NCBI RefSeq assembly: GCF_003018235.1
Contig: NZ_CP027437.1
DNA length: 64,000 bases
Source of the DNA: Escherichia coli
GTDB lineage: Bacteria; Pseudomonadota; Gammaproteobacteria; Enterobacterales; Enterobacteriaceae
Strand: one strand, 5' to 3'
The position numbers and the translations under genes were made by a program. Shown here piece by piece: positions 57,794 through 60,949 of the stretch. The stretch's first letter is position 1. Each line of letters opens with the position of its first letter. The notes under the pieces were generated by a model. The model was not told the origin of the DNA. It did no database searches and saw only the letters and a list, made by a program, of their open reading frames with translations.

Positions 57794-58120
57794 TTAAAAT
57801 TTTCGCACCCATTTACCGTTTATCCCTTGTACATATTCCCCCGGTTTAGCCCGAGCTACGAGCTTTTGCCCGGCGAGTTTCGCGATATCATCTACCGACA
57901 CATTATTTTGCTTTGCCAGTTGTTGGTAACTCGCTTTACGTTCGGCATTAATGTCGTTTACTAATTTCTCTGTTTCAGCATCTGTTTTCAGCGCAACCAG
58001 ATAACCATAAAATGTTTCCCCTACCCGCCCCTGAGTTCTGGCTTCATCCAGAGTCAATGCCATTACATTGCTGCTTACAAGCCCAACAAGAAACGCACAA
58101 AGAAGTACTGTTTTCTTCAT
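57794..58120 (-). CDS. ydbL: YdbL (DUF1318) periplasmic protein
   Basis: 108 aa from ATG at 58120 (MKKTVLLCAFLVGLVSSNVMA...). Confidence 0.85.
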   Translation of the reverse strand: MKKTVLLCAFLVGLVSSNVMALTLDEARTQGRVGETFYGYLVALKTDAETEKLVNDINAERKASYQQLAKQNNVSVDDIAKLAGQKLVARAKPGEYVQGINGKWVRKF

Positions 58121-58127
58121 CATCGCC

Positions 58128-58313
58128 TCAGAAAAGATCGCTACGAGTCTCAAGCAGCTCTTCGACATCTTTGTCTGCCTTGATGATGATCTCATGCTCA
58201 ATTTTAACGTTCATATTGATAGTGATCGGTTCCTTAGGTGCAGCGACTTCAATGCGAGGCGTACAGCCAACCAGCATGAAAGATGACGTCAACGCAGCCA
58301 GTAAAATTTTCAT
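58128..58313 (-). CDS. ynbE: lipoprotein YnbE
   Basis: 61-aa ORF MKILLAALTSSFMLVGC... with lipobox. Confidence 0.85.
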   Translation of the reverse strand: MKILLAALTSSFMLVGCTPRIEVAAPKEPITINMNVKIEHEIIIKADKDVEELLETRSDLF

Positions 58314-60949
58314 TGTTTTTCCTCACACTCTTTTCCTTGCGGACAGTCATTTCCCGGCAGACGTGCGTTCTGCTCCAACCATGCCTGGAGATTATCGCCA
58401 AAGCGTAAACTGCGCCACAGCGTAAAAATATTCTCTTCATGATGGTAATTAAGGTTTACCGTACCGCTTTTACCATCAACGCGACTGGTACCTGTAATGT
58501 TGGCCTGCATGGTTAATAAACCGAGATTATCTAAATTAATATTTGTCGATGAACGGCTAATTTCCATATAGCGCAACCAGTTAATTGCTGAACCCGCAGT
58601 CATATTGTCTTTCACCACCGCATCTGCGGTGTCTTTATCCAGCCGCAAGGTCATTGGCCCGCTATTTGCCAGCCAACCATCTTTCACTATCCATTTTTCG
58701 TTGTTTAGCCATAACGGCAATGCACCACTAAATGCCCCGGACATGGTGAATTGTTTCGGATTGACGGCGCTAACCAGTTCGCTGGATGAGAGATTATTCA
58801 GCCGCAACAGCGCCGGGTCATGTTGCGGCATACGTAATTGTTTCATCAGCACGTTACCGCCTAACACATCGACGCTAACATCGGTCAACAACAATGGTTC
58901 GTCTTCACTCCACGGATAACGCCCTTGCAAATCAGCCGTAATATTTTTCGCTGTCACCAGATTAATCACTTCGGCAATTCGCAACGTAACGGGGCCGCGA
59001 GTCCCCAGATGCCAGGCTCCATCGGCAAAACGGAAAGGCAGGACAAAATCGACACCGTTAACCTGATTATCTGGCATCCAGGCACTACCGCCTTTCAACA
59101 CACCGTGCCCTCCCGCGCGGAATCCTTGTTCAGGCGCAGCAGAAAATGCAACCTGGGCATACAGTTCGCCATCGCGTAAGTTCATCTTCCAGTCGGGTGG
59201 CACCAGCGGCTGGAATACGGTCAGTGATTGTTTAGGCCACCAGGCGTTACCGCGCAGACGAATACCGTCCCAGCGACCATTTACCCGAACCGGGCCAATC
59301 TCACCAGCATGTAAATCGCCTTTATATAGGAAATACGTCGGATCGCGTCCATCGACGCTAAATTTTAAGGTTGATGGCGGTAACACACTGCCGCCAGTGA
59401 ACAGCGTTTGCCCGGCGTCCAGTGACAGCGCGCCGCTAAAGGAGGGATGCTGTGCGTCACGTACCCAGACGACGGGCTTGTCGAGAATTAATCGCGGCTT
59501 TTCTACCGTCATCGTACCGTATTGTAACTGGTCGAAACCGGTGGAGAGATCGGTCAGCGTAATCGTGCTGTCATGCCACTCACCTTTTCCTGCAACATCC
59601 CAGGTGGCATTCATCGGTGTAAAACTCCCTTTTCCCCAGTAGCGCCACTGCCAGCGGCCAGCGTCAGGGAGAAAATCATTCGCCAGCCCATCCATATGCA
59701 GCACGAAATCGCCCAGTTCATTTTCATGCGCCTGCAAAATGGCCTGCAAACGTCCGTCAACACCACGTTGGGTGACTTTTACACCCGCTAAAGGCCAGCG
59801 GATTTCATCGATGTCCAGCGAATCGATGACTCTTCCCTTCGAACGTAATAACGCGCCTGGCTCAAAGGCCAGCGTTGGGTCAGTCAGACTTCCACTTAGC
59901 TGCGCAGGTAAACGGGCATATAAAATGAGGTCCGCCTGTTTCGCTTCACCGGTCAGTTGCAGAGGCAGCTGACTGTTATCCATGCTTAATTTTCCTGGGC
60001 CAAAATTAAGCACCGCGTTGCCTTTACCCGCTTGCCCCTGGGTCAGCACACTCAGTCGCCCGCTGACCAGAGCGTTCTCGAGCCCTGCCTGCCAGTTGTC
60101 GACTTTGACACCCAGTCGGCCACTCAAAGGAAAACCTGCATACGGCCAGCTCCAGCGACCATCGCTTACGGTCAATCGTTGACGAGTAATTTGCCACGGC
60201 AAATCGAGCAACGGATCGCCGTTATCCCGTGCCAGCACGATCAATTGCCCGCTATTTTCCTGCCAGTCCAGCTCTGCATCCACCAGTGACGGTTCCTGCG
60301 GCAAGTTTAACGTCGCAGTAGCATGCCCACTTACAGGAAGTCCATCCGGCACGAGCGGCATAGTAAATTCCCCCACCAGTTTAACCGGCGGCTGATTTTC
60401 AAACGCGACGACATCCAGTTCGCTGACTGTAAGTTGTTGCCCTTTAAGCTGGCCTTGAAATTTAACTTTTTCGCCCTGATAACGCAGTTGCTGGATATCA
60501 GAGGTTAACGCGAGAGAGAGTTTTCCCTGCCACTCCTGCCAGGGAGAAAAAATCAGTTTATCGATATTGATCCAGGTGTTAGGCAACATGGCCTGCCACT
60601 GCGCGAGGGTTTTTGGAGCGGCAGGCGATTGCTCCGTCTGCGGCAATTTCGCCAGACAAGCAGAATCAAGTTCTACCGTGCCGACGTTCAATAACCAGCG
60701 GCTCGGATGTGAAAGGCTGGCGTTGGTGATATGCGCAAGCTGACAATCTCCCACCAGATAACGGAGATCGGGAATGATTAAACCTTTACGCGTAATGCGT
60801 GGGCTTTCATCTAATGCAATACGTGTCCCGAGCGGTAGCCAGATGCCCGCCAGCGTGGGAACCCACAGCCCGAGCGTCATCAGCAGCGTCAACGGCACAA
60901 GAATAATCAGTAATAACAGCGCGAGAACGGCTTTATATTTACCCAGCAT
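58310..60949 (-). CDS. ydbH: AsmA-like large envelope protein YdbH
   Basis: 879-aa ORF with N-terminal TM anchor MLGKYKAVLALLLLIILVPLTLLMTLGLWVP. Confidence 0.9.
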   Translation of the reverse strand: MLGKYKAVLALLLLIILVPLTLLMTLGLWVPTLAGIWLPLGTRIALDESPRITRKGLIIPDLRYLVGDCQLAHITNASLSHPSRWLLNVGTVELDSACLAKLPQTEQSPAAPKTLAQWQAMLPNTWINIDKLIFSPWQEWQGKLSLALTSDIQQLRYQGEKVKFQGQLKGQQLTVSELDVVAFENQPPVKLVGEFTMPLVPDGLPVSGHATATLNLPQEPSLVDAELDWQENSGQLIVLARDNGDPLLDLPWQITRQRLTVSDGRWSWPYAGFPLSGRLGVKVDNWQAGLENALVSGRLSVLTQGQAGKGNAVLNFGPGKLSMDNSQLPLQLTGEAKQADLILYARLPAQLSGSLTDPTLAFEPGALLRSKGRVIDSLDIDEIRWPLAGVKVTQRGVDGRLQAILQAHENELGDFVLHMDGLANDFLPDAGRWQWRYWGKGSFTPMNATWDVAGKGEWHDSTITLTDLSTGFDQLQYGTMTVEKPRLILDKPVVWVRDAQHPSFSGALSLDAGQTLFTGGSVLPPSTLKFSVDGRDPTYFLYKGDLHAGEIGPVRVNGRWDGIRLRGNAWWPKQSLTVFQPLVPPDWKMNLRDGELYAQVAFSAAPEQGFRAGGHGVLKGGSAWMPDNQVNGVDFVLPFRFADGAWHLGTRGPVTLRIAEVINLVTAKNITADLQGRYPWSEDEPLLLTDVSVDVLGGNVLMKQLRMPQHDPALLRLNNLSSSELVSAVNPKQFTMSGAFSGALPLWLNNEKWIVKDGWLANSGPMTLRLDKDTADAVVKDNMTAGSAINWLRYMEISRSSTNINLDNLGLLTMQANITGTSRVDGKSGTVNLNYHHEENIFTLWRSLRFGDNLQAWLEQNARLPGNDCPQGKECEEKQ

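Follow-up and report, generated by a model that had tools for sequence, protein, structure and literature searches.

The ydbH-ynbE-ydbL Locus in an Escherichia coli Lineage: An Intact, Conserved Gene Set Predicted to Form a Single Operon

Introduction

Three genes with overlapping or nearly abutting ends lie side by side in a 64,000-nucleotide stretch of Escherichia coli DNA (the window), and the question is whether they form one operon and whether their products act as one complex of the cell envelope. The first-pass annotation had proposed both, the complex being one of the lipid-transport type.

In E. coli, YdbH and YnbE cross-link in vivo, forming an intermembrane bridge (Kumar, Davis & Ruiz, PNAS 2024; PMC11126948; photo-cross-linking), and YdbL binds the C-terminal helix of YnbE, as established by NMR and native mass spectrometry (De'Ath et al., bioRxiv 10.64898/2026.03.16.712125). 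According to the literature on K-12, the periplasmic repeating beta-groove of YdbH (~180 A) falls short of the outer membrane, YnbE can self-multimerise in an amyloid-like manner, and YdbL both curbs runaway multimerisation of YnbE and aids its docking onto YdbH. YdbL is reportedly not needed for function, and too much of it is toxic; surplus YdbL titrates YnbE, which is lethal without the paralogues TamB and YhdP.

Results

The minus strand of the window carries ydbH, ynbE, and ydbL; the same three genes appear in the list of open reading frames and in the RefSeq record of an E. coli genome that is 99.2% identical. The ydbH gene (58310..60949, 879 aa) encodes an inner-membrane-anchored AsmA-like protein with a predicted repeating beta-groove, ynbE (58128..58313, 61 aa) an outer-membrane lipoprotein, and ydbL (57794..58120, 108 aa) a periplasmic chaperone-like protein of the DUF1318 family.

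Both junctions could be read directly from the minus-strand sequence. The ydbH stop and the ynbE start share an ATGA overlap at 58310..58313, where the ynbE ATG occupies 58313-58311 and the ydbH TGA occupies 58312-58310; the GAGG ribosome-binding site of ynbE (58324-58321) is found 7 nt upstream of the start. At the ynbE/ydbL junction (58121..58130), the ynbE TGA (58130-58128) and the ydbL ATG (58120-58118) are separated by an intergenic gap of 7 nt, and a second GAGG site (58129-58126) overlaps the ynbE stop and is followed, after a 5-nt spacer, by the ydbL ATG. The ribosome-binding sites of ynbE and ydbL each sit within the preceding gene, and the gene ends given in the first-pass annotation (58310-58313 and 58120/58128) are exact to the base. 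In the mechanical call, the ydbL open reading frame begins with a TTG (58201). The annotation instead starts the gene with the ATG at 58120, which we take as the true start since, of the two codons, this is the one with a ribosome-binding site before it.

Other potential features of the region were considered as well. A 45-aa minus-strand open reading frame (57675-57812) overlapping the 3' end of ydbL was rejected, as in K-12 its frame contains a TGA (GAT TAT is replaced by GAT TGA) and as it is also unannotated in the 99.2%-identical genome. The plus-strand open reading frames within ydbH carry no annotation in the RefSeq record of the 99.2%-identical genome. When 57200-61400 was scanned against Rfam (E<=1), the only hits were chance ones of miRNA models to the palindrome downstream of ydbL, so that the 5' and 3' untranslated regions contain no known RNA family.

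The assignment of the three products to families, namely an AsmA-like large protein, a lipoprotein, and a DUF1318 protein, was borne out by full-length Pfam matches far beyond chance. YdbH matches PF11739 (YdbH-like) over profile positions 1-892 of 893 (E=9e-291, 968 bits, cut-off 26.3), and the NCBIfam equivalog NF007971 with 1398 bits (cut-off 824). Among other AsmA-like families, a Pfam scan at E<=10 returned DUF748 alone, at a non-significant level (E=0.12, 10.8 bits). Residues ~7-29 of YdbH (AVLALLLLIILVPLTLLMTLGLW; 60863..60931, minus strand) form a hydrophobic anchor by the Kyte-Doolittle scale, with a 19-residue mean of 2.95 at residue 8 and no other stretch of this length in the protein exceeding 1.6; the published topology has an N-terminal transmembrane helix. 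No solved structure matches YdbH by sequence. Our AlphaFold2 model, built from a six-sequence alignment of the window and K-12 proteins and four distant homologues, is mostly beta-strand past the N-terminal helix and of unusable quality (mean pLDDT 40, pTM 0.26), and the beta-groove fold is taken here from AlphaFold models that others have published for K-12 YdbH, which is 98.9% identical.

YnbE matches PF13617 (YnbE-like lipoprotein; E=3e-16, 59.3 bits, cut-off 25.8). A pattern search located its lipobox, L-V-G-C, at residues 14-17 (58263..58274, minus strand), with Cys17 as the lipidated residue and Thr at position +2. By the Lol-avoidance rule, the lack of Asp at +2 is consistent with sorting to the outer membrane. 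YnbE has the beta-strand ITINMNVKI (I30-I38) as well as the helix K48-T56, and Cys17, P29, I30, N35, and the C-terminal F61 are invariant in eight YnbE homologues. The cysteine is also named in published work as the conserved lipidated residue.

YdbL matches PF07027 (DUF1318; E=2e-31, 108.7 bits, cut-off 27), and its residues 22-108 match the PDB entry 28oj, "Probable chaperone-like protein YdbL" (E=6e-52). They are preceded by the signal peptide, residues 1-21 (58058-58120, minus strand), a hydrophobic N-terminus ending in VMA. The window allele keeps all 16 YdbL residues tested in the 2026 preprint, and has the conserved YnbE-binding residues L24, R28, E35, Y40, N58, R61, Y65, L68, N72, I79, K86, L87, R90, W104, and K107. 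The residues that are invariant across distant YdbL homologues (E35, N58, R61, Y65, N72, and W104) coincide with those found to be essential or important in experiments.

The locus was compared with ydbH-ynbE-ydbL of K-12 MG1655 (b1381-b1383). Gene order, gene lengths, the ATGA overlap, and the 7-nt gap are all equal, and the divergent ldhA is the upstream neighbor in both. Identity to K-12 amounts to 869 of 879 residues in YdbH (98.9%), 61 of 61 in YnbE (100%), and 106 of 108 in YdbL (98.1%). The substitutions in YdbH are A196T, Q258R, S356T, T361A, I493V, F542Y, T681S, E683D, A735T, and K803N, and those in YdbL are L5V and A55N only. All residues reported as functionally important in the three proteins are kept in the window, and the YdbH suppressor sites T303, G305, G308, and G456 are unchanged. 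With no internal stops in any of the three genes and dN/dS values against K-12 of 0.077 for ydbH, 0 for ynbE, and 0.18 for ydbL, the operon genes are intact, as the first-pass annotation had stated, and are under purifying selection. Within E. coli, 5418 of the 5426 complete genomes match the locus, and 5399 of them cover at least 80% of the query. Downstream of the locus the two strains differ, the present one having lost most of feaR, then feaB, tynA, paaZ, paaA-K, and most of paaX.

The same three-gene arrangement, with the same 7-nt gap, was found in E. albertii, E. marmotae, and Salmonella. Further afield, a ynbE-like gene is situated directly upstream of the ydbL homolog, on the same strand, in seven of eight cases (31-47% identity), and a ydbH-like gene precedes the ynbE-like one wherever the contig reaches (loci L005, L006, L007, L008, L011, and L013). 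The flanks of these distant loci are unrelated, and their GC content ranges from 37% to 48%. Packing is looser in one of them (L007), where the gaps are 79 and 101 nt; tight packing is thus not universal, and translational coupling may be dispensable for function.

The divergent ldhA/ydbH intergenic region of 207 bp (60950..61156, listed for the minus strand) contains a candidate sigma-70 promoter, the hexamer pair TTGAAA-15-AAAAAT at 61087-61061, picked from the sequence. A SELEX site of the RpoD holoenzyme has been described in the ldhA<>ydbH spacer with the same hexamer pair and the unit "ydbH--ydbL" (Shimada 2014; PMC3946193). The spacer differs from that of K-12 by three substitutions. 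A variant in this strain creates a consensus TATAAT at 61092-61087, which might alter the expression of ldhA or of the predicted operon. Reported PhoB binding "at ydbH" (PMC3465305) was set aside: the site is located ~1.4 kb from the ydbH start, within ldhA in K-12, and no expression change was reported.

At the other end, a perfect 17-bp palindromic hairpin with a 7-nt loop lies at 57620..57660, 134 nt past the ydbL stop, where it overlaps the stop codon of the remnant of feaR, which runs convergently. Its fold energy is -31.9 kcal/mol (z = -6.5 against shuffled sequences), and K-12 has the same hairpin with one compensatory difference, an A-T to G-C pair. The hairpin is probably a bidirectional terminator marking the 3' end of the operon; the simple terminator scan did not call it because of its imperfect U-tract. 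Beyond E. coli the hairpin lacks conservation, and in E. albertii, E. marmotae, and Salmonella the sequence past ydbL does not align.

Between these two ends, we found no excess of signals that would divide the unit. Six promoter-like sites occur within it, against 4.3 +/- 2.3 expected from shuffled sequence, and six terminator-like sites, against 5.0 +/- 2.1; on the minus strand, the simple scan returned no terminator-like site in 57794-60949. The intergenic distances are -4 and +7 nt. Published work describes ydbH, ynbE, and ydbL as a single operon in which there is "transcriptional and translational coupling". The prediction of a single ydbH-ynbE-ydbL operon, made already in the first-pass annotation, is therefore supported by the packing with embedded ribosome-binding sites, the chance level of internal signals, the conserved gene order, and the published work.

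A different reading of the same layout would be that adjacent genes belong to separate transcription units, with an internal promoter in the 3' part of ydbH or in ynbE driving ynbE, ydbL, or both, so that YdbL dosage is set transcriptionally. Weak sigma-70-like matches do occur on the minus strand at 58821-58793, within ydbH, and at 57929-57902, within ydbL, but both score only 9/12 and the overall count of promoter-like sites does not rise above that of shuffled sequence. The gaps of 79 and 101 nt in L007 could house promoters, whereas the 4-nt overlap and 7-nt gap of the window leave no space for a terminator. The amount of YdbL is known to require tuning of its own, and the protein is undetectable unless overexpressed; the proposed control of its dosage, however, is post-translational, via DegP. 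Moreover, an internal promoter would supplement read-through from ydbH rather than substitute for it, and the coupling described in the literature is that of one operon. We therefore regard separate units as very improbable and retain the single operon.

Discussion

Taken together, we are highly confident that the locus in the window is an intact E. coli ydbH-ynbE-ydbL operon, kept by purifying selection and predicted to serve the bridge function described in the K-12 literature. Transcription would begin in the ldhA-ydbH spacer and stop at the hairpin at 57620-57660. The bridge, in redundancy with TamB and YhdP, would use its hydrophobic groove to pass phospholipids from one membrane to the other, and the tight packing and translational coupling would help to keep the ratio of YdbH, YnbE, and YdbL, which is critical according to genetics.

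The proposal of a single envelope complex of the lipid-transport type is supported, with two refinements. The interactions between YdbH and YnbE and between YdbL and YnbE are published, and by sequence comparison the proteins in the window are identical or nearly identical to those of K-12 at all tested interaction residues; the interaction itself is taken from the publications. First, YdbL is a chaperone-like modulator or assembly factor with a critical dosage, and not an obligate structural subunit. Second, lipid transport by the YdbH-YnbE bridge is suggested by genetics and fold.

The bridge could be real and still have a main job other than bulk phospholipid transport, for example as a tether or sensor of the intermembrane distance, or as a carrier of another lipid or of a lipoprotein, its redundancy with TamB and YhdP then being indirect. 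The minor role of YdbH relative to YhdP and TamB would fit such a job, as would the modelled bridge with one YnbE, which is still shorter than the periplasm. Yet removing tamB, yhdP, and ydbH together is synthetically lethal, depletion lowers outer-membrane phospholipid, the hydrophobic groove is of the type found in eukaryotic lipid-transfer proteins, and in the paralogue YhdP a substrate containing phosphate cross-links to the groove. In the light of these data we consider a non-transport role unlikely and prefer phospholipid transport as the probable task of the bridge.

The packing itself, that is, the ATGA overlap, the 7-nt gap, and the embedded ribosome-binding sites, seen from Salmonella to Escherichia, could conceivably set the stoichiometry by keeping YdbL at a low level compared with YnbE and YdbH, although we rate this suggestion as less likely than not. 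If it were correct, uncoupled translation would mimic the phenotypes of YdbL excess or YdbL loss.

This interpretation is already known and established for K-12, and the finding in the window is an ordinary one. What the window adds is another E. coli lineage with an intact, conserved copy. The three-gene order observed next to YdbL homologs down to ~33% identity agrees with the published model without extending it. The operon encodes one of the three redundant systems that are thought to deliver phospholipids to the Gram-negative outer membrane, and this role makes it a possible antibiotic target.

Apart from the K-12 operon itself, the closest known systems include TamB-TamA and YhdP, the other AsmA-like intermembrane bridges of E. 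coli. TamB and YhdP are inner-membrane-anchored repeating beta-groove proteins, as YdbH is predicted to be, and are functionally redundant with it in outer-membrane lipid homeostasis; TamB likewise requires an outer-membrane partner from an adjoining gene. YdbH differs in being shorter and in being served by a periplasmic modulator of its own, YdbL. In place of an Omp85 beta-barrel, it is paired with a lipoprotein of 61 aa, which lengthens the groove by beta-strand augmentation. YdbL, in turn, resembles CsgC of the curli system, which acts on CsgA: in both cases, a small periplasmic protein stops runaway amyloid-like multimerisation of a partner from the same locus. The analogy comes from the authors of the published work, and the likeness is one of function only, without sequence relationship; YdbL belongs to the DUF1318 family and binds the C-terminal helix of YnbE.

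Organization and integrity of the ydbH-ynbE-ydbL unit

Three consecutive genes on the minus strand, ydbH (58310-60949, 879 aa), ynbE (58128-58313, 61 aa), and ydbL (57794-58120, 108 aa), have the same placement in a mechanical ORF list and in the RefSeq annotation of the best-matching genome. Read from the sequence, the ynbE ATG (58313-58311) shares bases with the ydbH TGA (58312-58310) in an ATGA overlap, and the GAGG ribosome-binding site of ynbE lies within ydbH, 7 nt upstream of the ynbE start. Seven nucleotides separate the ynbE TGA (58130-58128) from the ydbL ATG at 58120, whose GAGG site (58129-58126) overlaps the ynbE stop and lies 5 nt from this ATG. 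An alternative in-frame ydbL start, the ATG at 58123, is disfavoured relative to the annotated one, since only 2 nt separate it from the GAGG. Within the unit, neither sigma-70-like matches (6 vs 4.3 +/- 2.3) nor terminator-like matches (6 vs 5.0 +/- 2.1) exceed those in shuffled sequence, and a terminator scan found no minus-strand terminator-like site between the three genes. An Rfam scan found nothing real.

YdbH aligns with Pfam PF11739 over the full length (E=9e-291) and scores 1398 bits against the NCBIfam equivalog NF007971 (cut-off 824). Its single hydrophobic segment spans residues ~7-29. YnbE matches PF13617 (E=3e-16) and has an LVGC lipobox with Cys17 and Thr at +2, while YdbL, with a signal peptide ending in VMA, matches PF07027/DUF1318 (E=2e-31) and the solved structure 28oj, "Probable chaperone-like protein YdbL" (E=6e-52). 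For YdbH, a sequence search of solved structures detected no relative, and no other AsmA-like family reached significance in a permissive Pfam scan; its AlphaFold2 model, built from six sequences only, has a pLDDT of 40 and is unusable for fold.

All three genes have the lengths of their E. coli K-12 MG1655 counterparts and no internal stops. YnbE is 100% identical to the K-12 protein, YdbH has 10 substitutions over 879 residues, and YdbL has two, L5V within the signal peptide and A55N at a position that varies among homologues (dN/dS vs K-12: ydbH 0.077, ynbE 0, ydbL 0.18). The gain-of-function sites T303, G305, G308, and G456 of YdbH, the beta-strand I30-I38 and helix K48-T56 of YnbE, and all 16 mutagenesis-probed residues of YdbL are unchanged. 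The first-pass annotation had described an intact operon encoding an AsmA-like large protein, a lipoprotein, and a DUF1318 protein; its coordinates are all correct by the ORF list, the RefSeq annotation, and the junctions in the sequence itself, its family assignments agree with PF11739/NF007971, the lipobox with PF13617, and PF07027, and the K-12-equal lengths without internal stops bear out intactness.

The window is E. coli chromosome; of 5426 complete E. coli genomes, 5418 give a match to the 5 kb at 57000-62000 (best match 99.2% identical), and 5399 of them cover at least 80% of the query.

Ends of the unit

Upstream, ydbH shares a 207-bp spacer with the divergent ldhA. An RpoD-holoenzyme SELEX site is listed in this spacer for the unit "ydbH--ydbL", with the hexamers TTGAAA-15-AAAAAT (Shimada et al. 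2014, PMC3946193). This pair is found exactly at 61087-61061, a candidate promoter of the ydbH unit. The AT-rich spacer also carries three clustered substitutions relative to K-12; by one of them, K-12 TTTAAT has become the consensus TATAAT at 61087-61092 on the ydbH-sense (minus) strand, immediately upstream of the listed TTGAAA.

Downstream, a perfect 17-bp palindrome with a 7-nt loop (57620-57660; -31.9 kcal/mol, z = -6.5) lies 134 nt past the ydbL stop and overlaps the stop codon of a convergent feaR remnant. One compensatory A-T to G-C pair distinguishes it from K-12 (TTAGCG...CGCTAA vs TTGGCG...CGCCAA), so that the 17-bp stem is preserved. We read it as a putative bidirectional terminator with an imperfect U-tract. 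It is not called by a simple terminator scan, and the region is not conserved outside E. coli.

Variable region downstream of ydbL

Directly downstream of ydbL, ~17.7 kb of K-12 (1446586-1464333) is missing (window 57263-57622), comprising the N-terminal part of feaR, feaB, tynA, paaZ, paaA-K, and most of paaX. The remnants are the C-terminal 62-63 aa of FeaR (plus strand, AraC helix-turn-helix), a C-terminal remnant of paaX, and an intact paaY. The junction (57415-57417) has a 3-nt overlap, and 259 of the 5426 complete E. coli genomes share it. At 56460-56690, ynbG and the ydbA autotransporter pseudogene are absent (K-12 1465063-1474004, where IS2 and IS30 are found), leaving only about 230 bp between paaY and pdxI (ydbC). 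In E. albertii (locus L014, 4325-4547) and E. marmotae (locus L015, 4325-4544), pdxI directly follows ydbL on the same strand, and the interval has no feaR, paa, or ydbA genes. For this reason, the ydbL-pdxI interval looks like a variable slot, occupied in some E. coli by the feaR-tynA-paa-ydbA block.

Elsewhere in the window, a type VI secretion Vgr-family gene is interrupted at 1735-2976 by an ISEc16-like element of the IS3 family. The element measures about 1.24 kb and shares 99.1% identity with copies from other strains, and comparison with an uninterrupted genome shows a 5-bp overlap between its flanks.

Conservation beyond E. coli

The ldhA<>ydbH-ynbE-ydbL arrangement and the same 7-nt ynbE-ydbL gap are kept in E. 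albertii, E. marmotae, and Salmonella. To look for functional linkage beyond E. coli, YdbL was searched against 1.84 billion cluster representatives (1262 clusters at E<=1e-3), and genomic context was looked up for eight homologues with 31-47% identity. Seven of these loci carry a same-strand gene for a PF13617 lipoprotein directly upstream of the YdbL homologue, and a PF11739 gene lies upstream of that wherever the contig is long enough (loci L005, L006, L007, L008, L011, and L013). The loci sit among unrelated neighbours and range in GC content from 37% to 48%. The intergenic distances vary (2/9, 9/9, -14/47, -14/11, and 79/101 nt), so tight packing is less strictly conserved than gene order and strand. 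Residues invariant across the distant homologues, namely the lipid-anchor Cys, P29, I30, N35, and the C-terminal Phe of YnbE, and E35, N58, R61, Y65, N72, and W104 of YdbL, coincide with residues of experimentally shown importance.

The sole exception is locus L010, where a 226-aa protein with two DUF1318 repeats (1860-2540), 31% identical to YdbL, has two neighbours of 129 aa and 469 aa (the latter cut) that lack a Pfam match; no recognisable YnbE or YdbH was found at this locus. This locus may hold a diverged form of the system, or DUF1318 may serve an unrelated purpose there.

A few gene calls of 155-173 aa from ENA and Logan assemblies (P0001, P0003, P0006, and P0007) combine PF13617 and PF07027 in a YnbE-YdbL fusion-like arrangement. 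Each is represented by one sequence, except P0006 with four, and their probable source is an indel or misassembly across the 7-nt gap.

Comparison with the K-12 system

In K-12, YdbH function requires YnbE, which was shown to multimerise, and function and interaction are both lost when prolines are placed in the predicted YnbE beta-strand (Kumar, Davis and Ruiz, PNAS 2024, PMC11126948). In the model of these authors, the lipid-anchored outer-membrane YnbE lengthens, by beta-strand augmentation, the repeating beta-groove, about 180 A long, of the inner-membrane-anchored YdbH, and the two form an intermembrane bridge redundant with TamB and YhdP. YdbL is dispensable for function; in its absence YdbH levels are lower and YnbE multimerisation is higher, and YdbL excess kills a tamB yhdP double mutant (PMC11126948). 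The crystal structure of YdbL has been reported, together with its direct binding to the YnbE C-terminal helix and the degradation of free YdbL by DegP (De'Ath et al., bioRxiv 2026, 10.64898/2026.03.16.712125); the operon is explicitly said there to show transcriptional and translational coupling.

The first-pass reading of the operon as encoding a single lipid-transport-type complex is supported, with two amendments: YdbL is a dosage-sensitive chaperone-like modulator and not an obligate subunit, and phospholipid transport by the YdbH-YnbE bridge is putative. We suggest that the gene packing may help to hold a critical ratio of YdbH, YnbE, and YdbL. The ydbH-ynbE-ydbL feature is already known, and the mechanism described for K-12 applies, by near-identity of the proteins, to those encoded in the window.
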